A DNA stretch of 64,000 nucleotides, taken from contig JBMNFY010000008.1 of the NCBI GenBank assembly GCA_050949565.1, forward strand, positions 1-64,000, read 5' to 3'. This DNA comes from Kiritimatiellia bacterium (lineage in GTDB: Bacteria; Verrucomicrobiota; Kiritimatiellia; RFP12; UBA1067). Both the position numbers and the translations under genes were made by a program. The notes beneath the pieces were generated by a model, which worked only from the letters and a program-made list of their open reading frames with translations, ran no database searches and was not told where the DNA came from. Position 1 is the first letter of the stretch; every line of letters starts with the position of its first letter. Shown here piece by piece: positions 9,397-47,713 of this stretch.

Positions 9397-10845
9397 AAGG
9401 ACTTTCCCCAAAAAATCGGGGGCAATTATATCTAAGTCCTTGAAAACAAAGGGGATGCGTCTCTGACGGGCGTGCCTGAAAGTGAAAAAGTGGTTTTCCT
9501 CCGCCGGTTCTGCCAAAATGGCGGTTCAACCAAAAACCAAAAACCGGAAAGGAAAACCGACGTGAATCATAGCGCAACGGCGTTCAAAGCGCGAGAGCAA
9601 CTCAAGAATTTTTTGGGGGAACTTTCCCCCCGGTTTTCCAAGCCGCTCGGCAAGTTCGTGGGCGACATGGTCTACGGGATACAGGCGTCGCAGGACGTGA
9701 AGCTCAGCCGGATCGCCCGCGCGCTCGACGAGCCGATATCGATGAAGAAACTGGAGGACAGGCTGAGCCGGATGCTCGGGAGCGAGGGCATCGAGCAGGG
9801 GATTTCCGACGCTGTCGCCCGTCTGGGCTCGCGTCACGTCCATCAGGACACGCTGATCGTCATCGACCCGACCGACATCCGTAAGCTGTACGCGAAGAAG
9901 ATGGAATATCTCGCCCGCGTCCGGGACGGGAGCACGGGGGAGATCGGCAACGGATACAGCGCCTGCCTGGCGGTCGCCTGCGAGAGCGGCGGCCGCCGGA
10001 TCACGCCGTTGCACATGCGGCTGTGGTCGAGCGAGGCGGAGGGCTTCATCAGCCAGAACGACGAGGTGCTCGGCGTCATCGACCAGATCAGCTCCCGCGC
10101 GAAGAAGCGCGGCATCTACGTCATCGACCGCGGAGGCGACGGAGACTGGCTGTTCGACGGCCTGGACCGGCGCAAACTGGACTACATCGTGCGCCTCGTG
10201 GGCAACCGCAACCTGCTCCACGGCCGGCGGACCGCGCTGGCCGAAGAACTGGCGGCATCCTGCCCCATGAAGCACATCGAGATCGTCACGAGGGAGACGG
10301 GGGACGGGGTGAAAAGCTATAAGCTGGAGTTCGGCGCCATGACCGTCGCCCTGCCGCAGAGGCCCGACAAGCCCCTGCGCATGGTCGTGGTGAAGGGGTT
10401 CGGCGAGCGGCCGATGCTCCTGCTGACCACGCTGGCCGGGACGACGTCGCGCAAGTCCCTGTGGCAGGTCGTCGAGGGCTATCTGACGCGGTGGCGCGTC
10501 GAGGACGCGATCCGCTTCGTCAAGCAGAGCTACAACCTCGAGGACATCCGGGTCCTGACGTACCGGCGCCTGAAAAACATGGTCGCTCTGCTGCTGGCCG
10601 TCATCTACTTCAACTGCGTCTGGCTGGCCGGACGGCTGCGCTGCGAGATCCTGACGACCAACATCACCCACGCCGCCAAGCGCATCTACGGCGTGGCCGA
10701 GTTCCTCCACTACGCCGTCGCCGACGGCCTCGGGAGGCTCTTCACGCGCCACGGGAAATGGTACGGCTACAAGCCGCCAGACCCCGAATCAAACCCGCTC
10801 GGACTGGTCTTTCTGGAATGACCAGATTTTTTGGGGAAACTCCTT
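9397..10845 (+). mobile_element. IS4-family insertion sequence, full copy 1
   Basis: Terminal inverted repeats AAGGACTTTCCCCAAAAAATC and GATTTTTTGGGGAAACTCCTT. Boundaries confirmed against copies 2 and 3. No target-site duplication seen. Confidence 0.9.
9562..10821 (+). CDS. IS4-family DDE transposase
   Basis: IVIDPTD, VIDRGGD and YLTRWRVEDAIRFVK (Y-2-R-3-E-6-K signature). GTG 9562 follows the RBS GAAAGGA; the computed ORF starts at 9472. Confidence 0.9.
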   Translation: MNHSATAFKAREQLKNFLGELSPRFSKPLGKFVGDMVYGIQASQDVKLSRIARALDEPISMKKLEDRLSRMLGSEGIEQGISDAVARLGSRHVHQDTLIVIDPTDIRKLYAKKMEYLARVRDGSTGEIGNGYSACLAVACESGGRRITPLHMRLWSSEAEGFISQNDEVLGVIDQISSRAKKRGIYVIDRGGDGDWLFDGLDRRKLDYIVRLVGNRNLLHGRRTALAEELAASCPMKHIEIVTRETGDGVKSYKLEFGAMTVALPQRPDKPLRMVVVKGFGERPMLLLTTLAGTTSRKSLWQVVEGYLTRWRVEDAIRFVKQSYNLEDIRVLTYRRLKNMVALLLAVIYFNCVWLAGRLRCEILTTNITHAAKRIYGVAEFLHYAVADGLGRLFTRHGKWYGYKPPDPESNPLGLVFLE

Positions 10846-38537: not shown

Positions 38538-39101
38538 ATGAACGTCGCTCACAGGTGGTTGGCTCTCATCGGACTCGCATTCGCGGTACAGGCAAAGGAG
38601 GTTGCCCCGCTCTTCCCCTTTGTAATCTCGTATGACGGACCGGACAATGCGTCGAGCGTGGCGCATCTGCTGGACGCACCTGCGGGCCGACACGGTTTTG
38701 TAAGGGCGCAGGGTGGTCATTTCGTTACCGATGCTGGACCGATCCGCTTTCATGGGACAAACCTGACCGGTCCCGCGAACTTCCCTTCGCGCGCGGACGC
38801 CGACAAGTTAGCCGCGCGGCTCGCCCGCTTCGGCATCAACTGTGTGCGCTTGCACTTCATGGACACCTGGTACGTGAATTTTATGACGCGACCCACCCAG
38901 GGGATTCTGGCCGACGACACGCATACGCAGCGCGAACTGGATCCGAAGCAACTCGACCGGTTGGATTACATGATCGCGGCATTCAAACGCGCCGGCATCT
39001 ACGTGAACATCAACCTGCATGTCGGTCGCACACTGGACGAGCGCGACGGCCTCCCCGGCATCAAGGGCTTGTCGTGGGCCAACAAAGGCATCGGGCAGTT
39101 T
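38538..39101 (+). pseudogene. N-terminal fragment of a secreted GH5-like TIM-barrel glycoside hydrolase, cut by IS copy 2
   Basis: Signal peptide; IRFHGTN, GINCVRLHFMD, GIYVNINLH. The ORF runs into the IS end at 39102. Confidence 0.8.
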
Positions 39102-40550
39102 AAGGAGTTTCCCCAAAAAATCTGGTCATTCCAGAAAGACCAGTCCGAGCGGGTTTGATTCGGGGTCTGGCGGCTTGTAGCCGTACCATTTCCCGTGGCG
39201 CGTGAAGAGCCTCCCGAGGCCGTCGGCGACGGCGTAGTGGAGGAACTCGGCCACGCCGTAGATGCGCTTGGCGGCGTGGGTGATGTTGGTCGTCAGGATC
39301 TCGCAGCGCAGCCGTCCGGCCAGCCAGACGCAGTTGAAGTAGATGACGGCCAGCAGCAGAGCGACCATGTTTTTCAGGCGCCGGTACGTCAGGACCCGGA
39401 CGTCCTCGAGGTTGTAGCTCTGCTTGACGAAGCGGATCGCGTCCTCGACGCGCCACCGCGTCAGATAGCCCTCGACGACCTGCCACAGGGACTTGCGCGA
39501 CGTCGTCCCGGCCAGCGTGGTCAGCAGGAGCATCGGCCGCTCGCCGAACCCCTTCACCACGACCATGCGCAGGGGCTTGTCGGGCCTCTGCGGCAGGGCG
39601 ACGGTCATGGCGCCGAACTCCAGCTTATAGCTTTTCACCCCGTCCCCCGTCTCCCTCGTGACGATCTCGATGTGCTTCATGGGGCAGGATGCCGCCAGTT
39701 CTTCGGCCAGCGCGGTCCGCCGGCCGTGGAGCAGGTTGCGGTTGCCCACGAGGCGCACGATGTAGTCCAGTTTGCGCCGGTCCAGGCCGTCGAACAGCCA
39801 GTCTCCGTCGCCTCCGCGGTCGATGACGTAGATGCCGCGCTTCTTCGCGCGGGAGCTGATCTGGTCGATGACGCCGAGCACCTCGTCGTTCTGGCTGATG
39901 AAGCCCTCCGCCTCGCTCGACCACAGCCGCATGTGCAACGGCGTGATCCGGCGGCCGCCGCTCTCGCAGGCGACCGCCAGGCAGGCGCTGTATCCGTTGC
40001 CGATCTCCCCCGTGCTCCCGTCCCGGACGCGGGCGAGATATTCCATCTTCTTCGCGTACAGCTTACGGATGTCGGTCGGGTCGATGACGATCAGCGTGTC
40101 CTGATGGACGTGACGCGAGCCCAGACGGGCGACAGCGTCGGAAATCCCCTGCTCGATGCCCTCGCTCCCGAGCATCCGGCTCAGCCTGTCCTCCAGTTTC
40201 TTCATCGATATCGGCTCGTCGAGCGCGCGGGCGATCCGGCTGAGCTTCACGTCCTGCGACGCCTGTATCCCGTAGACCATGTCGCCCACGAACTTGCCGA
40301 GCGGCTTGGAAAACCGGGGGGAAAGTTCCCCCAAAAAATTCTTGAGTTGCTCTCGCGCTTTGAACGCCGTTGCGCTATGATTCACGTCGGTTTTCCTTTC
40401 CGGTTTTTGGTTTTTGGTTGAACCGCCATTTTGGCAGAACCGGCGGAGGAAAACCACTTTTTCACTTTCAGGCACGCCCGTCAGAGACGCATCCCCTTTG
40501 TTTTCAAGGACTTAGATATAATTGCCCCCGATTTTTTGGGGAAAGTCCTT
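39102..40550 (-). mobile_element. IS4-family insertion sequence, full copy 2 (inverted)
   Basis: Near-identical to copy 1 (one I-to-V change in the translation); both TIRs present. Confidence 0.92.
39126..40385 (-). CDS. IS4-family DDE transposase
   Basis: Same protein as 9562-10821. Confidence 0.9.
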   Translation of the reverse strand: MNHSATAFKAREQLKNFLGELSPRFSKPLGKFVGDMVYGIQASQDVKLSRIARALDEPISMKKLEDRLSRMLGSEGIEQGISDAVARLGSRHVHQDTLIVIDPTDIRKLYAKKMEYLARVRDGSTGEIGNGYSACLAVACESGGRRITPLHMRLWSSEAEGFISQNDEVLGVIDQISSRAKKRGIYVIDRGGDGDWLFDGLDRRKLDYIVRLVGNRNLLHGRRTALAEELAASCPMKHIEIVTRETGDGVKSYKLEFGAMTVALPQRPDKPLRMVVVKGFGERPMLLLTTLAGTTSRKSLWQVVEGYLTRWRVEDAIRFVKQSYNLEDVRVLTYRRLKNMVALLLAVIYFNCVWLAGRLRCEILTTNITHAAKRIYGVAEFLHYAVADGLGRLFTRHGKWYGYKPPDPESNPLGLVFLE

Positions 40551-40569
40551 ACCTGTCAAGCGGCGGCGG

Positions 40570-40722: not shown

Positions 40723-40803
40723 GAGGACGAGCGCGACGGCCTTCAGCGTGACATCGCCGCTGCCGCCGGAAACACCAATGTCGAAGGAGTGCAGGCCCTT
40801 CGC

Positions 40804-41031
40804 GTGAGAAACGGGGTCGTAGTTTGACATTAGACAAACAGCAGCGTGAGAAACGGGGTCGTAGTTTGACATTAGACAAACAGCAGAAAGGCGAAGACAA
40901 GGAACGGTGAAATGATAGTGTGAGAAACGGGGTCGTAGTTTGACATTAGACAAACAGCGTGAGAAACGGGGTCGTAGTTTGACATTAGACAAACAGCAGA
41001 AAGGCGAAGACAAGGAACGGTGAAATGATAG
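40804..41031 (+). repeat. Four direct copies of a 39-bp unit and two copies of a 34-bp linker
   Basis: gtgagaaacggggtcgtagtttgacattagacaaacagc at 40804, 40846, 40920 and 40959; agaaaggcgaagacaaggaacggtgaaatgatag follows copies 2 and 4. Confidence 0.92.
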
Positions 41032-41127
41032 CGGCTCGGCTGAAAACCAACGGGTCTTGTATCGGTCGGTTGCGCACGTATCGAGGGTGCTGGAAAAATG
41101 AAATGTCTCATGTCAAACTACGACCCC
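40968..41127. mobile_element. Putative ~160-bp MITE with 24-bp inverted ends GGGGTCGTAGTTTGACAT(T/G)AGACA
   Basis: Inverted copy at 41104-41127 matches 23/24; it truncates the adjacent oxidoreductase gene. Confidence 0.65.
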
Positions 41128-42499
41128 GATAACCCTTGCCGGCGATGTAAGGCACCCAGTTGAAGATTCTCTTCGCATTTTCGCTTTTCTGCTTCGCTGT
41201 CCAGAAGCTGCCGTAGATGGCACGAAAGAGTCGGTCGCGCAGCATCTCCGCATCATCGATTGTATCTTCCGCCGGATCAAGCCCCGCCTCCCACTGCCAC
41301 GTGCCTTTGAGCGCAGAAACGCTCCCGCTGACCTTGGTCGCCCACGGAACATCGGGGAATTCATAATCGTTCGTCTGGGTCTTCGTCGTCCACAGGAGCG
41401 AATTGCCCATCGTGCTCCTGTCGGAGACTTTTGGCGCCCGCTTCGGCTCGTCGTATTCATCCTTTGCCTCGCGTCCGAGCATATACGCCGCCCCCGCCCA
41501 ATAGCCGAGCCATCCATCACCTGTGGCATCGCAGTAGAGCGGCGCGACAAAACGCCGTCTCGCCCCCGTCTCAACATTCCGCGCATCGACCGCAACAATC
41601 TTGCGCGCGGCGTTCGTCACGACTCCGTACGCCCGCCAGCCGGTGTTGATGCTGATGTTCTTGTAGCTCTTGACGAAATTCATGCGTTTCGCATCATCTG
41701 CAGCCATCGAATTGCCGTTAGCGGGCGTGTTCTTTATTGCATCGACAATCCAATGGTATTCTCGTCTCTTCGCCTCAGTCTTGACGCGTATCTCGTCGCT
41801 CGCGTTGCCGCCAAGCTTTGGACGGTCTTGCACGATTGCCACATTCATTCCGGCCTCTGCTGCCGCAACCGCCGCTGCCGTACCTGCCATTCCGCCGCCG
41901 ACAACGACGAAGTCGGCCTTAATGACATCACCCGGCGCACCAACCTCACCTCGCATCTTCGCACGCCATGCCGCAAGTGCGGCAGGAGCGTTCGGCGGCA
42001 TCGCCGTATCTTCAGGGCAAAGGTAGATTGCGTCGCAGCGTCCCTCGAAGCCGGTCAGATCATGGAGCGCAAGAACCTGCGGTCCTTTGCCGACCTTGAC
42101 GGCACCCGCATCAACCCATCCCCAAGTGTCTGGCGCAACGCCGAGTGTATTGGGAAATGTCTGTCCGCCAAGAACAAGCTGAAAGCGGCCAGGTTTCTCG
42201 CCCTTCCAATCGGGCGTCCAGTCTCGCGTCCTCACAAAGGCACGGACACGACCAGGCTTTATGTTGACCCTGGTTTTCGCGTCCGCGACGGGAATGCCCT
42301 TGCCGTGCGCAAGGAGATAGGGCGAACCCATCTGCTCCACGAACTGTGGATCGACAACTCATCCGCCCTTGTCTATAAACGATTCAGCCTCAACAAGGCA
42401 TGTCGACATCTGTGCGGATGCCGACATGGATGCCGTTGCACAAAACGAGACCGCAAGCAGAATGCGACGCATCGATTTGGCAAGGATTGAAGTTTTCAT
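41128..42499 (-). pseudogene. Secreted FAD-dependent oxidoreductase with an internal TGA and a truncated 3' end
   Basis: ATG 42499 and signal peptide; VEAESFIDKGG*VVDPQF (TGA at 42359-42361); VVVGGGMAG; DATGDG; breaks off at YIAGK at the repeat. Confidence 0.85.
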
Positions 42500-42509
42500 T
42501 CCGGAATCC

Positions 42510-45254
42510 CTATTTGAAAACCAAAATCATCCCGGTGGGCTTGGCAAGATAGAGGGTCTTTGTGTCACCGTCCGACATCCACTTGACGCGGGTATCGGTG
42601 ATGGGTGCGTTGGAGACTGCCCAGTTAGCGCTGGATGTGCCGAACGAAGATGGGACCGTGAGGACAGGGACTTTATCGGCTTTGAGCACAGCCTCGGTAA
42701 TCTCCGATGCATCGATGGTGATTGTGCCGGATGCGGAGAATGTTCCAGATACCACTTGAGGTGTTCCTGTAGCCTTCACGGTCGCGCCGGCCGCAAGCGT
42801 AATATTCGTCATCGCGTTGCCGGTCGTGAGAGAGCCGTTCACCAAGAGTGTTCCGTAAGCCGTCCCGCTGAAATTGTTTCCGTTGGCAAGTTTTCCGCCG
42901 TTATAGAAGTTGCTCACGCAGAGGGTCATGGTGCCGTCGATTCGCAACTCTCCCGACGCACCGATGTTCAACGTGCAGTTCGCGCCTGTCGTATTCGCAC
43001 GGGCACACTGAAACGTGCCGCCATTCACGTTAATCGTGCCATCTCCTGTTATGGTCGTGTTGACAAGCCAGAAGCCTGCGGTTCCGTTGAGTGTGAGGGT
43101 ATTCGAGCCGAGCGCAATGCCCGTCTGGTTCCAGCTAGGCGCCATGAGGCCGAAATTTCTCCCGGCAGTCACCGTCGCATCTCCTTCAAGACTTAGATTT
43201 ATGGTCTGATACGTGGTATTGCCGATTGCGGAACCGGTATTGACGAAGAACGCGCCATCTTCCAGCACCACCGATATGGTAAGGTTTTGAACGCCGTTCG
43301 CATCGAACGTCGCGCCGCTCGCCACACGGACGGTGTGGGTGGGATTGGAGGTTCCCGTCCCGCTCTTGCTCGCGACCTTGAGCGTTCCGTTGCTGACGAT
43401 TGTGGTGCCGGTCGAATCGTTGCTGAACGGCCAGCTTACCGTGCCGTCGCCCGTCTTGACGAGAGTGCCGTTGTTCACGATATTGCCGATGCCGCTGATG
43501 TCATCGGCCGTCACTGTCTTGCCAGAGGAGATGACCAAAGTCGAGCCGGTCGCGTCAACGAACTCGATGCACCCAACCGCCACATTCTCATTGACAGTCA
43601 GCGTGTAGTTGCCCGTCGCTGTAATGCGCACGATGTCATCTGAAGCAGGCATGACGCCGCCACTGAGGGTCGTCCAATCCTTGCTAGTGTCGAGCGTCCA
43701 CTTATGAACGGTCTGCGCTGTCACACGCACGTCACAGACACCGTAGCCAGCGGCAGTGTAGCTGTCCGCAATCGCGTTGCCGCTTCCCCACTCCTGCCCA
43801 GTATACAGATTCACGCCCGGATTGCCCCATTTCTGGTTCGGAGCAAAGATGGTCGAGGCATAAATCCCGTCGGCACCGTTCTCGAACGACACGACGGCGC
43901 ATTTGAGCCAGTCTCCGTCGCGCTCCTGATACTCGACGATAATGTTCGTCACGCTTCCGACGTCGTCCTCGTACACCTTCGTATTGTAAGCTGCTGTGGT
44001 CGGTTCAACCGAATCACAGTATTTCGTGCCCACATAGCCACCGGTCAGGCGCCCAGTGAACACGCCTCCCTTGATGTCATCGAGCGTGAGCGTTTTCGAC
44101 GGGTCGGAGAACACCTTGGTCTTGGCAGGATATTTCGCGATGCACTGCGGGATGGCGTATAGTTCCGAAACAGAATAGTTGCCTTCGCCGCCGGCAGAGC
44201 AGTTGCCGCCTGAGCCGTTCGACTTGGTTACAGTCCCGCTCGCGTCGATGGCAAACTTCTGCGCGTTGGCCGTGCCGTTGTAGGAGTAGCACGGCTGCGA
44301 GGCCCAGACGCCGCCCACGCCGTCCACAAGCTGTATGATCGCAGTCTTCTTCATCTCGGACGACTCGAACTGCATCACGATCTTTTCGAGTTTGTCGTTG
44401 GCTGCGTTCGTCCAGCACGTCTTGAAAGCCGCCCAATTATTCGTCACAGGCTTGTCGAGAGCATCGGCCATGCGGAAGCCTGCGACGAAGGCGCAGTCCT
44501 TGAGGTCTTCAAGTGTCACGCCAGGAAAAGCGAGGCTCGAATCCGGCACTGCTTTGACGCCATGGATTCTCAAGCCCCATGCCTTGTAGCCACCGCTCGT
44601 GCCGCTGCCGGTCGGAGCGGTCTGGGCCTTGGCGAACGATGCATTGCTGCCGTCCAGCCCGTACATGCGCCTGTTGTAGTATAACGCGTTGCCGCTGTGG
44701 TAGCACCAGCCAAACTTCTGCACATAGACGCCGCCATCGCCGTTGGTAAGGACGAAGACGACCGCCTTAGCCTGCCCCTCGTCGCTCGTGCCGAACTGGT
44801 ATGCAAGCACATCGACGCTGTTGTTCGTCTTGTGGCGTTGTGGATGGAGTCCCCACGCCGTCGCACGGGCTGTGATGGTATTGTCGCCATCGCCGCCGTC
44901 GAGTTCGGTGATGAGCGTATAACGGTTGATCTCGTCAAGCGTCTTACCGGGAAACGCGAGCTGCGGCTCGTAACCGATTTCTATGTCGGACGCGATGCCC
45001 TCTATCTTGATGGCGGTACAGTCCTGCTTTTCCTTTACCTGATAGTACGTCGTTGTCGACGCTCTTGCGGTGAGAGTCGCTGCAGTGGAAACGGCGGCGA
45101 CAAGCAAAATGCAACGAAATATTTTTGTCAGTGTTGTTTTGTAGAGTAGAGACCCACGCCTCGACGTTGCCGTCGATGCGGCTTCCCCCTCGTCAAACCG
45201 TACGTGCGGATTTCCCGCATACGGCTTTCCATTGAGTGCTTCTCTTTTTGTCAC
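42510..45254 (-). CDS. Large secreted/surface protein with three internal repeats and an autotransporter-associated beta-strand repeat; first 38 codons lie inside the group II intron 3' end
   Basis: Signal peptide KTTLTKIFRCILLVAAVSTAATLTARA starts at 45140; LVKTGDGT...TGTTIVSNGTL repeat; C-terminal PTGMILVFK. Confidence 0.85.
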   Translation of the reverse strand: MTKREALNGKPYAGNPHVRFDEGEAASTATSRRGSLLYKTTLTKIFRCILLVAAVSTAATLTARASTTTYYQVKEKQDCTAIKIEGIASDIEIGYEPQLAFPGKTLDEINRYTLITELDGGDGDNTITARATAWGLHPQRHKTNNSVDVLAYQFGTSDEGQAKAVVFVLTNGDGGVYVQKFGWCYHSGNALYYNRRMYGLDGSNASFAKAQTAPTGSGTSGGYKAWGLRIHGVKAVPDSSLAFPGVTLEDLKDCAFVAGFRMADALDKPVTNNWAAFKTCWTNAANDKLEKIVMQFESSEMKKTAIIQLVDGVGGVWASQPCYSYNGTANAQKFAIDASGTVTKSNGSGGNCSAGGEGNYSVSELYAIPQCIAKYPAKTKVFSDPSKTLTLDDIKGGVFTGRLTGGYVGTKYCDSVEPTTAAYNTKVYEDDVGSVTNIIVEYQERDGDWLKCAVVSFENGADGIYASTIFAPNQKWGNPGVNLYTGQEWGSGNAIADSYTAAGYGVCDVRVTAQTVHKWTLDTSKDWTTLSGGVMPASDDIVRITATGNYTLTVNENVAVGCIEFVDATGSTLVISSGKTVTADDISGIGNIVNNGTLVKTGDGTVSWPFSNDSTGTTIVSNGTLKVASKSGTGTSNPTHTVRVASGATFDANGVQNLTISVVLEDGAFFVNTGSAIGNTTYQTINLSLEGDATVTAGRNFGLMAPSWNQTGIALGSNTLTLNGTAGFWLVNTTITGDGTINVNGGTFQCARANTTGANCTLNIGASGELRIDGTMTLCVSNFYNGGKLANGNNFSGTAYGTLLVNGSLTTGNAMTNITLAAGATVKATGTPQVVSGTFSASGTITIDASEITEAVLKADKVPVLTVPSSFGTSSANWAVSNAPITDTRVKWMSDGDTKTLYLAKPTGMILVFK
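45141..45227 (-). ncRNA. Group II intron ribozyme domains V and VI
   Basis: DV AAGCCGTATGCGGGAAATCCGCACGTACGGTTT (AGC triad, AC bulge) at 45227-45195; GAGGGGG...CTCTACTC DVI with bulged A; ends AC. Confidence 0.93.
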
Positions 45255-45289
45255 GGCTTTCGTCCTTTCTTCGCTTTAAATGGCTGTGA

Positions 45290-45315
45290 ATTATATTTGT
45301 TTTTTTTTCTGTCAA
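45290..45315 (-). promoter_or_regulatory. Consensus -35/-10 hexamers inside the intron, pointing at the 3' exon
   Basis: TTGACA-gaaaaaaaaacaaa-TATAAT. The spacer is only 14 bp and contains A9; TTGACA overlaps the RT stop codon. Confidence 0.55.
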
Positions 45316-46012
45316 ATCCGCGTTCTCGCAGTTACGAGGCGATACAGCCCATAGTGCGCCATCTCGCCATAGTACGAGTCCGCGAACTTCAGTCGGCAGC
45401 GCCGCTGGCTCTTCCTGTTGAGGAATCGCGCCATGCGCTTCAGCACATGGTGGTTCACCTTGCGGAAGGCCCTTGACGGATATCCGACGGAGTAGAACGC
45501 GCCCCATCCCTTCAGCAGTCTGTTCACCCTCTCGACGACGGTTTCGACAGGCAACAACACATTGCGCGAATGCGTCAGTTCGTGGACTTCGCGGCACACC
45601 CTCTTGACCGACTTCGGGGACGGGCCGAAGTGCAGGTACCTCCCGCCCGTCCCGAAGAGCCTGTCCCTCGCCTTCCTGAACTCGTAGCCGAGGAACACGA
45701 GCGACGAGCGTTCCGCGTCGAGGTCGAGGACTTTCGTCTTCTCCCTGTTCACGGTCAGCCCCATCCGCTCTTCGAGTATGCCTTCCACCTTCCGCAGGAA
45801 CCCGTCCCTCCACCTCTTCGCGAGCAGGACGAAATCGTCCGCGTACCGGACTATCGTCATCGTCTGCCCCATCGCTTTCGCCGTGAGGCTGGCTATCGTC
45901 TCGAACCAGTGGAGGTAGATGTTCGACAGAAGCGGGGATATGACGCCGCCCTGCGGCGTCCCCCTCCCCTTGGGTTTCACCATTACGCCGTTGGGTTCTC
46001 TTGCGCACGCTT
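45312..46012 (-). pseudogene. ltrA: 5'-truncated group II intron reverse transcriptase/maturase, no endonuclease domain
   Basis: GTPQGGVISPLLSNIYLH, IVRYADDFV, GLTVNREKT, FLGYEF, and the thumb/X motif VNRLLKGWGAFY. Confidence 0.92.
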
Positions 46013-46770
46013 TCAGCTCCCGCGCGAAGAAGCGCGGCATCTACGTCATCGACCGCGGAGGCGACGGAGACTGGCTGTTCGACGGCCTGGACCGGCGCAA
46101 ACTGGACTACATCGTGCGCCTCGTGGGCAACCGCAACCTGCTCCACGGCCGGCGGACCGCGCTGGCCGAAGAACTGGCGGCATCCTGCCCCATGAAGCAC
46201 ATCGAGATCGTCACGAGGGAGACGGGGGACGGGGTGAAAAGCTATAAGCTGGAGTTCGGCGCCATGACCGTCGCCCTGCCGCAGAGGCCCGACAAGCCCC
46301 TGCGCATGGTCGTGGTGAAGGGGTTCGGCGAGCGGCCGATGCTCCTGCTGACCACGCTGGCCGGGACGACGTCGCGCAAGTCCCTGTGGCAGGTCGTCGA
46401 GGGCTATCTGACGCGGTGGCGCGTCGAGGACGCGATCCGCTTCGTCAAGCAGAGCTACAACCTCGAGGACATCCGGGTCCTGACGTACCGGCGCCTGAAA
46501 AACATGGTCGCTCTGCTGCTGGCCGTCATCTACTTCAACTGCGTCTGGCTGGCCGGACGGCTGCGCTGCGAGATCCTGACGACCAACATCACCCACGCCG
46601 CCAAGCGCATCTACGGCGTGGCCGAGTTCCTCCACTACGCCGTCGCCGACGGCCTCGGGAGGCTCTTCACGCGCCACGGGAAATGGTACGGCTACAAGCC
46701 GCCAGACCCCGAATCAAACCCGCTCGGACTGGTCTTTCTGGAATGACCAGATTTTTTGGGGAAACTCCTT
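46013..46770 (+). mobile_element. IS4-family copy 3, 5'-truncated (3' half of the transposase plus right TIR)
   Basis: Matches copy 1 from position 10088 to the right TIR. Confidence 0.92.
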
Positions 46771-46785
46771 TTATTCTTTCCCCCC

Positions 46786-46814
46786 TTGACCTCTCCGAAC
46801 GCATGTCGCATACT
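46786..46814 (+). promoter_or_regulatory. Putative sigma70 promoter of the dapA operon
   Basis: TTGACC-17 bp-CATACT. Confidence 0.65.
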
Positions 46815-46843
46815 TGTGGCACATCATTTTTTTGAAGGACGTT

Positions 46844-47713
46844 ATGACGCTAACAGGCACATTCACTGCATTAGTGACCCCATTCAACACCGACGGCAGC
46901 GTCGACTACCCCGCGCTGCGCGATCTGGTGAACTGGCAAATCGAAAACGGCGTGACCGGCCTTGTACCGGTCGGCACCACTGGCGAAGCGCCGACACTTG
47001 ACTTCGCCGAACACGCCCAGGTCATCGAAGCTGTCGCCGAGGCTGCGGCCGGCAAATCTGTAATCATCGCCGGCACCGGCGCCAACTCAACCGCCGAGGC
47101 GATCGATCTGACGCGCGACGTGCTGAACGCTGGCGTCGACGCCACGCTACAGGTCACGCCCTACTACAACAAGCCAAACGCTGAAGGGCTCTACCGTCAC
47201 TTTATGTCGGTCGCCGAGTTGGGCCTGCCGGTCGTGCTCTACAACGTGCCGGGACGTACCAGCAAGGAGATCCCGCTGGATGTGGTGGTACGGCTGGCGG
47301 CACATCCCAACATTGTAGCGATCAAGGAGGCGGCCGGCAGCGTGGAGCGCGTCAGCGCCATCCGCAACGCCTGCGATCTGCCGGTGCTGTCCGGCGATGA
47401 CGGTCTGGCGCTCCCCATGATCAGCGTCGGTGCCTGCGGCGTGATCAGCGTGGCGTCGAACGTGATCCCCAAGGAGATGTCGGAGTTGATCCGTCTCGCG
47501 CTCGCGGATGATCTGGTCGGCGCGCGTGAGTTGCACCGTACTTACTACCCCCTGTTCCGCGATCTCTTTATCGATACCAATCCGATTCCGGTGAAAACGG
47601 CACTGACGCTGATGGGGCGGGTCGGCCCGACGTTCCGGCTGCCGCTCTGCGAGCCCTCGGCCGCTGTCCGCGATCAACTGAGCCGCACACTGCGCAGCTT
47701 GAGTCTTCTTTAA
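46844..47713 (+). CDS. dapA: 4-hydroxy-tetrahydrodipicolinate synthase
   Basis: TALVTPF, GTTGE, TPYYNKP, LYNVPGRT, IKEA, TNPIPVK. Confidence 0.96.
   Translation: MTLTGTFTALVTPFNTDGSVDYPALRDLVNWQIENGVTGLVPVGTTGEAPTLDFAEHAQVIEAVAEAAAGKSVIIAGTGANSTAEAIDLTRDVLNAGVDATLQVTPYYNKPNAEGLYRHFMSVAELGLPVVLYNVPGRTSKEIPLDVVVRLAAHPNIVAIKEAAGSVERVSAIRNACDLPVLSGDDGLALPMISVGACGVISVASNVIPKEMSELIRLALADDLVGARELHRTYYPLFRDLFIDTNPIPVKTALTLMGRVGPTFRLPLCEPSAAVRDQLSRTLRSLSLL

Follow-up and report, generated by a model that had tools for sequence, protein, structure and literature searches.

The minus strand of positions 42,510 to 46,012 in a 64,000-nucleotide stretch of DNA from a Kiritimatiellia bacterium (GenBank assembly GCA_050949565.1, contig JBMNFY010000008.1, positions 1 to 64,000; hereafter the window) carries the 3' end of a group II intron, followed directly by a gene for a secreted repeat protein. 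What is left of the intron amounts to 872 nucleotides (nt; 45141-46012) and is made up of half a reverse transcriptase (RT)/maturase gene and intact ribozyme domains V and VI (DV-DVI). An earlier note on this DNA had described an RT stop codon, the hexamers TTGACA and TATAAT, a Shine-Dalgarno (SD) sequence, a GTG codon and a frame in phase with the exon, and all of these were found on the minus strand as described. The features of the locus, with their basis in brackets, are the following.

42510-45140, minus strand: 3' exon, encoding a secreted repeat protein from codon 2 onward (KTTLTKIFRCILLVAAV...), 876 codons and a stop (list of open reading frames, ORFs)
45141-45229, minus strand: DV and DVI, with the 3' splice site after 45141 (full-length match to the RF00029 model)
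45141-45254, minus strand: intron-borne leader ORF of 38 codons, with a GTG start at 45254, in phase with the exon (ORF list)
45263-45270, minus strand: SD-like AGAAAGGA, 8 nt 5' of the GTG (sequence reading)
45290-45315, minus strand: TTGACA (overlapping the RT stop), A-run and TATAAT, a promoter-like candidate (sequence reading)
45312-46012, minus strand: C-terminal part of the RT/maturase, with RT motifs 4-7, X domain and stop codon and without an endonuclease domain (Pfam, tblastn)
46013-46770, plus strand: truncated insertion sequence (IS) copy abutting the truncated intron (758-nt arm; DDE_Tnp_1 transposase)

The RF00029 match, the sole Rfam match in the 64-kb window, scores 51.7 bits against a gathering score of 40, and its final base, 45141, closes a codon of the GTG frame. 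That codon, at 45254-45252, opens an ORF of 914 codons that runs along the minus strand to 42510. The RT stop (TGA, 45314-45312) lies inside TTGACA (45315-45310), which a spacer of 14 nt separates from TATAAT (45295-45290). Upstream, an ORF of 242 codons (46040-45312) matches positions 111-205 of the 205 of RVT_1 (1.6e-13) and 1-76 of the 80 of GIIM (1.4e-12) in Pfam, and the RT fragment aligns by tblastn with residues 248-474 of a full-length relative, homology ending at 46012. At the break between 46012 and 46013 the 5' exon, domains I to III (DI-DIII) and half of the RT have been lost; the window copy, cut at 46012, has neither DI-DIII nor a 5' GUGYG boundary and is therefore incapable of splicing in cis. 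It is the single copy of its lineage in the genome.

The IS arm (46013-46770) is 100% identical, in inverted orientation, to positions 39102-39859 of a complete IS copy. An independent contig from a metagenome (L196) aligns with 46135-41336 over 4800 nt, ungapped and at 99.92% identity, and reaches 123 nt into the IS. Of the words sampled from 44300-46100, a share of at least 0.97 is present in each of 14 DNA runs, which come from many studies. Judged by these sequences, the intron/IS junction did not arise in assembly.

A search with the exon protein returned 54 homologues, of which 14 had their N-termini compared. Four of them (P0003, P0006 and P0007 at 85-86% identity; P0010 at 72%) begin with M followed by at least the opening 25 residues of the exon, and the other ten have different or diverged N-termini. 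Because these uninterrupted homologues start with M and the exon residues, the window intron can be placed between the ATG and codon 2 of the secreted-protein gene; the check for an uninterrupted homologue in which the insertion lies far from the start codon thus had the opposite outcome. One database entry (P0002, 914 residues) is the fused form, already recorded by gene callers. No Pfam family was matched in a scan of the window protein, and a distant homologue carries PF12951. No other in-frame start preceded by an SD sequence was seen near the 5' end of the window exon.

Relatives and their insertion sites

A search for the RT fragment across 61 genomes, that of the window among them, gave matches in 5 of the 60 others. 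A DV pattern search of the genome contigs gave at least 119 stretches, and a search of metagenome contigs with the near-full RT of one relative (L064) gave 596 stretches, 418 of them relatives, and the best 80 of the 418 were used. In a FastTree phylogeny of 105 RTs, which is a quick method applied here to intron relatives only (no reference introns) and with several long branches flagged, a 62-row clade (support 100) comprises L005, a 22-row clade that contains the closest relatives of the window copy (clade A; support 99) and a 39-row sister group. Full-length relatives begin with GTGCGCC, and RF02005 matches were found in L005 and L008.

The 5' junction was reached in 17 of the 22 clade A loci, where the 5' exon ends in ATG in 16 and in TTG in one. 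Four further ATG junctions come from L005, L082 (internally deleted), L121 (ORF-less) and L203, giving 20 ATG and one TTG among all 21 junctions recovered. Where at least 90 nt of flank were available, an SD-like purine run lies at -19 to -7 in 17 of 19 cases, and an in-frame stop occurs within 37 codons upstream in 14. The earlier note had proposed that this intron targets the position just after a start codon, with the 5' exon of a full-length copy to be checked for a terminal ribosome-binding site and ATG, and both the junctions and the homologues of the window gene agree with this proposal. From this comparison of junctions the lineage, found mostly in Kiritimatiellia, homes to the bond directly after the start codon. 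DV-DVI of the window copy is 100% identical to that of L130 and L131, which are located in different genes, an identity that points to recent mobility.

Target recognition was followed through exon-binding site 1 (EBS1), whose loop was located by aligning domain I. In the sister clades and the outgroup the six EBS1 bases covary with the six that close the 5' exon, that is, intron-binding site 1 (IBS1), the EBS1-IBS1 pairs being CACAUU-AAUGUG (L155), CAUUCU-AGAAUG (the twintron site of L154, L156 and L157), CACCAA-UUGGUG and CAAAGA-UCUUUG (L006). The clade A loop reads CAUGGU, CAUGAU, CAUGAC or CAUAAU, and the observed sites match it over AUG only, sometimes with C at -4 as well, so that the pairing is 3-4 bp long in clade A against 6 bp in the sisters. 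On the other side of the junction all 34 distinct exons begin with A, followed by A or G in 32 of them (from the second residues listed). These 4-5 specified bases alone are insufficient to explain the restriction to real starts. A segment 5' of the EBS1 hairpin that is 8-10 nt longer is present in all 18 rows of clade A, L005 and L082 and in 0 of the 38 other aligned rows; the ORF-less L121 is gapped over this region and stands outside the count. As read from the alignment, the segment contains ACUCCUAA or ACUUCCAA, is complementary to SD sequences and is placed where EBS2 lies in other classes. Comparison by eye of this anti-SD-like loop type with the SD of the target gave no convincing covariation.

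The sister sub-clades (L165-L193) insert in short palindromes with 6-bp EBS1 matches, namely GGGGTCAG|ACCCC, GGGGTCTG|ACCCC, TGATACGG|TCGATGTGATAC and CCCCATTGGTG|GAG, which are possibly repeated host hairpin elements, to judge from their sequence. A rule that would place these sub-clades beside stop codons, at ORF boundaries, was considered and rejected, as the sites are short palindromes with no consistent upstream ORF.

Several other arrangements were seen among the relatives. In L154, L156 and L157 (about 2557-2593 in L154) an intron lies after an ATG 36 nt inside the 5' end of another intron, with a perfect 6-bp EBS1 match. In L136 (2444-2632) a clade A intron directly precedes a DV-DVI remnant of another sub-clade, at the would-be leader start of that remnant, and tandem DV/DVI copies occur in L136, L168 and L179. 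L143 and L146 have the same intron and the same 3' exon behind different ATG-ending 5' exons, a sequence pattern that suggests rearrangement through recombination between intron copies. At clade A 5' ends (e.g., L130, L133 and L143) the host start reads 8 or 25 codons into the intron (MVRQAKLG...) and then meets a conserved stop.

Leader frame, exons and upstream hexamers

DV-DVI can be read through without a stop in two of its three frames owing to the conservation of DV, and a phase match by chance has a probability of 1/3; a single copy is for this reason weak evidence, and stop-free frames were rejected as a discriminator. The leader arrangement goes beyond chance because it recurs in relatives and because homologues of the window gene start with Met and then the first residues of the exon. 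Among 30 distinct sequences upstream of DV, taken from clade A-type modules (3' modules with DV-DVI at least 85% identical to RT-defined members), the aligned leader start column holds ATG in 22, GTG in eight and no other codon, and the aligned relatives also share a conserved AAGAAAGG block, which lies 5-8 nt upstream of this start. The distance from DV to the end of the intron in this group is 84, 87 or 156 nt, all multiples of three, the longest form being due to a 69-nt stop-free insertion in DVI; in the outgroup these lengths are spread across all residues modulo 3. The structure of DV-DVI is itself conserved, with compensatory changes in 11 of 27 pairs (19 relatives). The SD sequence, start codon and in-phase, stop-free frame are, on this alignment, conserved features of the lineage, as the earlier note had claimed for one copy. 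As a separate observation, the 69-nt in-frame DVI insertion of L082 and L092 resembles a segment (...GAAGCTTCGCTTCGGAGGGTACC...) in domain I of the ORF-less L121 intron, and may by this resemblance be a small mobile RNA module.

The exons were taken from 35 clade A-type modules and two with the DVI insertion; removal of one with too little exon and two with a repeat exon left 34 distinct exons. In 28 of these the leader frame continues into the exon for at least 90 codons or to the end of the contig, with a maximum of 1625 codons. A crude test of hydropathy and charge for signal peptides, with Met added, is passed by 26 of the 34, several of them lipoprotein-like or Tat-like. The same test is passed by 22-27% of the long ORFs of the window genome and by 41% of those that start ATG|AR, a baseline that uses crude start calls from a single genome; against the 41% the enrichment has a binomial P of about 3e-5.

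Ten clade A-type modules are preceded by DNA other than intron (the window copy, L188, L192, L049, L060, L045, L092, L056, L110 and L087), and blastn found no DI-DIII upstream of any of them. In seven of these remnants (the window copy, L188, L192, L049, L045, L092 and L110) the leader frame runs on through 460-1246 exon codons; among the others, L087 has an exon of 54 codons and L060 has a deletion in DVI. RT-less and 5'-truncated modules of DV/DVI and leader thus persist before intact genes, in keeping with the earlier suggestion that the 3' end could be portable.

Of the 30 distinct copies, 25 have TTGACAG followed by an A-run and TATAAT (TATACT in two), and the five copies without them are RT-less modules. 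The spacer between the hexamers, read from the alignment, varies from 12 to 16 nt because the length of the A-run varies. In several copies TATAAT may lie within a small hairpin, as predicted from sequence, with a stem that differs between copies. A consensus scan of 44900-46900 for sigma-70 promoters and rho-independent terminators, which is uninformative for a PVC-group host, did not list the TTGACA/TATAAT pair, the 14-nt spacer being too short for it. Since what precedes the remnant is an IS fragment in antisense, transcription of the gene has to begin within either the remnant or the IS. TTGACA and TATAAT are candidates for an intron promoter by their sequence. RNA data were in the form of contigs from four metatranscriptome runs, in which starts, ends and joints are not resolvable. 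Pieces of the exon that are 100% identical occur in contigs of metatranscriptome X15 at a depth of 3-6, which DNA carry-over could also produce, and no contig among the matches listed for the four runs bridges 45141.

Around the remnant, the IS, which is 1451 bp long, ends in inverted repeats of 25 nt and encodes a DDE_Tnp_1 transposase, has one full copy at 39101-40551 and at least one further matching stretch, at 10088-10210, so that a 6.1-kb segment with the secreted-protein gene is bracketed by the full copy and the 758-nt half copy. Between the IS and an oxidoreductase gene, 40800-41128 holds a unit of 25-40 nt (...GAGAAACGGGGTCGTAGTTTGACATTAGACA...) in four direct copies, with one inverted copy at 41104-41128. 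The gene itself (41108-42499, minus strand) encodes an FAD-dependent oxidoreductase with a signal peptide and has one in-frame TGA at 42359-42361 (...FIDKGG*VVDPQF...), which could reflect a pseudogene, a sequencing error or recoding. Elsewhere in the genome, contig C7:107939-108634 (about 881-1577 of L003) has a second RF00029 match (46.3 bits) at the end of an element of about 700 nt. This element opens with GTGCGCC, lacks an RT ORF and resembles an ORF-less group II intron from outside the lineage of the window copy.

Readings of the remnant

The anatomy of the locus, the insertion point, the conservation of start and phase, the covariation of intron and target and the dead remnants before intact genes are direct observations. 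The account that we favour, with some confidence, is that the intron piece in the window is a 3' remnant, no longer able to splice, of a start-codon-homing intron lineage whose leader lets interrupted genes be made unspliced, the extension leaving with the signal peptide. Ribosomes would start at the SD sequence and the ATG or GTG of the intron and read through DV-DVI in phase into the exon, and the host protein so made would be about 36-38 residues longer at its N-terminus. The extended pre-protein would be exported and cleaved by signal peptidase, the extension being lost along with the signal peptide, and the mature protein would be unchanged. Insertion would on this account be tolerated even where splicing fails or the intron is truncated.

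A number of results weigh against this account. The leader is also found in two of three sister sub-clades at sites that are not start codons (e.g., GGGGTCAG|ACCCC), where the SD sequence, the start and a GKP... frame run to the last base of the intron and stop 0-18 codons into a non-coding exon. Because sister sub-clades at other sites share it, the leader ORF is probably older than start-codon homing, and its original role, as its distribution suggests, may have been centred on the intron. The replacement cassette that the earlier note envisaged accordingly stands in respect of its conserved SD sequence, start and in-phase frame, but cannot have evolved solely for that purpose. A codon-position test upstream of DV, with 6, 3 and 4 variable columns, gave no coding-like pattern. 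Six of the 34 exons stop in frame after 32-54 codons, six clearly lack the look of a signal peptide and two more are borderline. At five of the 19 junctions with sufficient flank the upstream frame is open for at least 99 codons, and at least two of the 19 sites (L145 and L147) probably follow internal ATGs of long ORFs. In L056 a 7-nt deletion in DVI has put the leader out of frame while the exon ORF of 484 codons is intact, which makes it a clear counter-example or possibly a very recent lesion. The truncation in the window may likewise be too recent for decay of the gene to show, since the window and L196 differ at only 4 positions in 4800 nt and DV-DVI is identical to that of active relatives; four differences are also too few for a selection test on the window gene. 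Translation of the leader and the start of transcription are, finally, predictions from sequence.

The sister leaders, the lack of a coding pattern in the leader, the intact L056 exon and the possible recency of the truncation would suit an explanation that we hold to be improbable though deserving of weight, in which SD sequence, start and frame serve the intron itself, by timing or inhibiting splicing through ribosome loading, by preventing polarity after the RT stop or by encoding a small peptide. The exon phase would then be a side effect, and the window gene would be silenced or expressed from some other start. Such an explanation sits less easily with the retention of exon phase despite indels, including the 69-nt insertion in DVI, with the seven splicing-dead remnants that keep in-frame ORFs of at least 460 codons, with the enrichment of signal-peptide exons beyond the ATG|AR preference, and with the absence of any other SD-preceded start near the 5' end of the window exon.

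The earlier note had also raised the idea of an alternative or trans splice acceptor, in which the 5' exon and domains I to IV would be encoded elsewhere, as with the D5/6 copies of the Clostridium tetani intron C.te.I1. DV-DVI is structurally intact, relatives have RT-less DV/DVI modules before surface-protein genes and tandem DV/DVI copies were noted above, yet blastn with the 5' halves of five relatives and nhmmer found no DI-DIII of the lineage in the 92%-complete genome, which has one copy of the intron and whose other RF00029 match belongs to the unrelated ORF-less element. With no 5' half in the genome, trans-splicing is left without a visible partner, and we regard this idea as very improbable. 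More doubtful still is an assembly chimera at a repeat as the source of both the junction and the start-less gene: two internally broken repeats do meet there and the IS arm is identical to another window copy, but L196 crosses the junction ungapped, the 14 DNA runs hold at least 0.97 of the words sampled from the region and the intron-exon junction is independent of the IS junction.

To return to the remnant as a translated leader, a wider model, which we offer tentatively and would not press, is that the lineage recognises the translation initiation region in a ribosome-like manner. EBS1 CAU would pair with AUG and the anti-SD-like loop with the SD sequence; the intron would then substitute its own SD sequence, start and in-phase frame, so that insertion would be silent for exported proteins and truncated 3' ends would be kept as permanent leaders. 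If this were true, it would constitute a bacterial route from intron sequence to coding exon.

In the general view (PMC12584367, PMC3073962), group II introns of bacteria are considered to persist by staying out of genes, and introns at large to hold ribosomes away from the catalytic core. Clade A lies inside genes, where only the start codon is separated, and by its layout seems made to carry ribosomes through DV-DVI in the phase of the host gene. If the leader works, it would represent a new way for a retroelement to be harmless, would account for the dead 3' remnants that remain joined to intact secreted-protein genes, and would be a natural case of intron sequence turned coding as well as a compact, portable translation-start module; the rule of start-codon-directed targeting would be relevant to targetron design. 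For annotation, the 914-residue fused form being already on record (P0002), the database N-termini of many Kiritimatiellia surface proteins may be intron-derived.

Comparison with known introns

A literature search found no start-codon-homing IIC-like introns, no in-phase intron-borne leader and no group II introns of Kiritimatiellia; subscription papers and supplements lay outside the search, and a prior description is possible. Full-length RT ORFs of the lineage are 449-484 aa long and end after the X domain, and the best PDB matches of the RT are IIC RTs (7uim, 1.9e-53; 5hhj, 4e-48; 6ar1, 2.5e-47), ahead of T.el4h (2.7e-41) and LtrA (6.6e-37). With about 390 nt of ribozyme before the ORF and an overall length of about 1.98 kb, the intron is, by its sequence, IIC-like with an RT that has no endonuclease domain, a placement made by RT similarity and not by a class-resolved phylogeny with reference introns.

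Group IIC introns (E.r. IIC, GsI-IIC and O.i.I1) are resembled in the missing endonuclease domain, the closest RT sequences and the small ribozyme, and perhaps in the short EBS1-IBS1 pairing of clade A, and the outgroup member L006 sits after a hairpin and TTTG. They differ in that the sites of clade A are SD sequences with ATG start codons and not terminators or attC sites, with no conserved 5'-exon hairpin as far as reading of the sequences goes; in addition, clade A has the extra ACUCCUAA/ACUUCCAA loop 5' of the EBS1 hairpin and carries a conserved SD sequence, start codon and ORF across DV-DVI.

Insertion at translation signals is known from a IIB1 lineage of proteobacteria with CL1-type RTs and an insertion of 300-700 nt at the base of domain I, found in housekeeping genes (PMC12584367, as far as its accessible portion describes). 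That lineage resembles the present one in being a monophyletic group at translation start or stop codons, a feature also seen here. Its defining domain I insertion and IIB1/CL1 affiliation are absent here: about 390 nt, covering DI-DIII, precede the RT ORF, the RT is nearer to IIC, the hosts are Kiritimatiellia and the targets mostly secreted-protein genes. Here there is also a 3' leader in phase with the exon, of which that portion of the source makes no mention for the IIB1 lineage.

C.te.I1 of C. tetani, as presented in the available part of PMC3919590, is a single ORF-less class B intron with four tandem D5/6 acceptors; its 5' exon is a whole S-layer ORF and not the short start-codon exon of the earlier note's description, the annotated ORF starts lie in D5/6, and most transcripts are unspliced. 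In both systems D5/6 stands directly before surface-protein ORFs. The present lineage differs from what is described there in being mobile and RT-encoding and in its spread over many genes that are not related, every copy following the start codon of the gene it interrupts; the window, with one RF00029 match in 64 kb and no DI-DIII in the genome, has no tandem acceptor array.

An intron-borne element proposed to restore expression of a downstream gene has a precedent in the IIC-attC introns, for which the part of PMC3001079 that was accessible reports a promoter, Pout, on the complementary strand in DI/DII of antisense insertions, with 16-18 nt spacers and activity by reporter and 5'-RACE (rapid amplification of cDNA ends). 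Pout, on that description, supplies transcription only, whereas the lineage of the window copy carries candidate hexamers with 12-16 nt spacers on the sense strand at the 3' end, together with a translation start.

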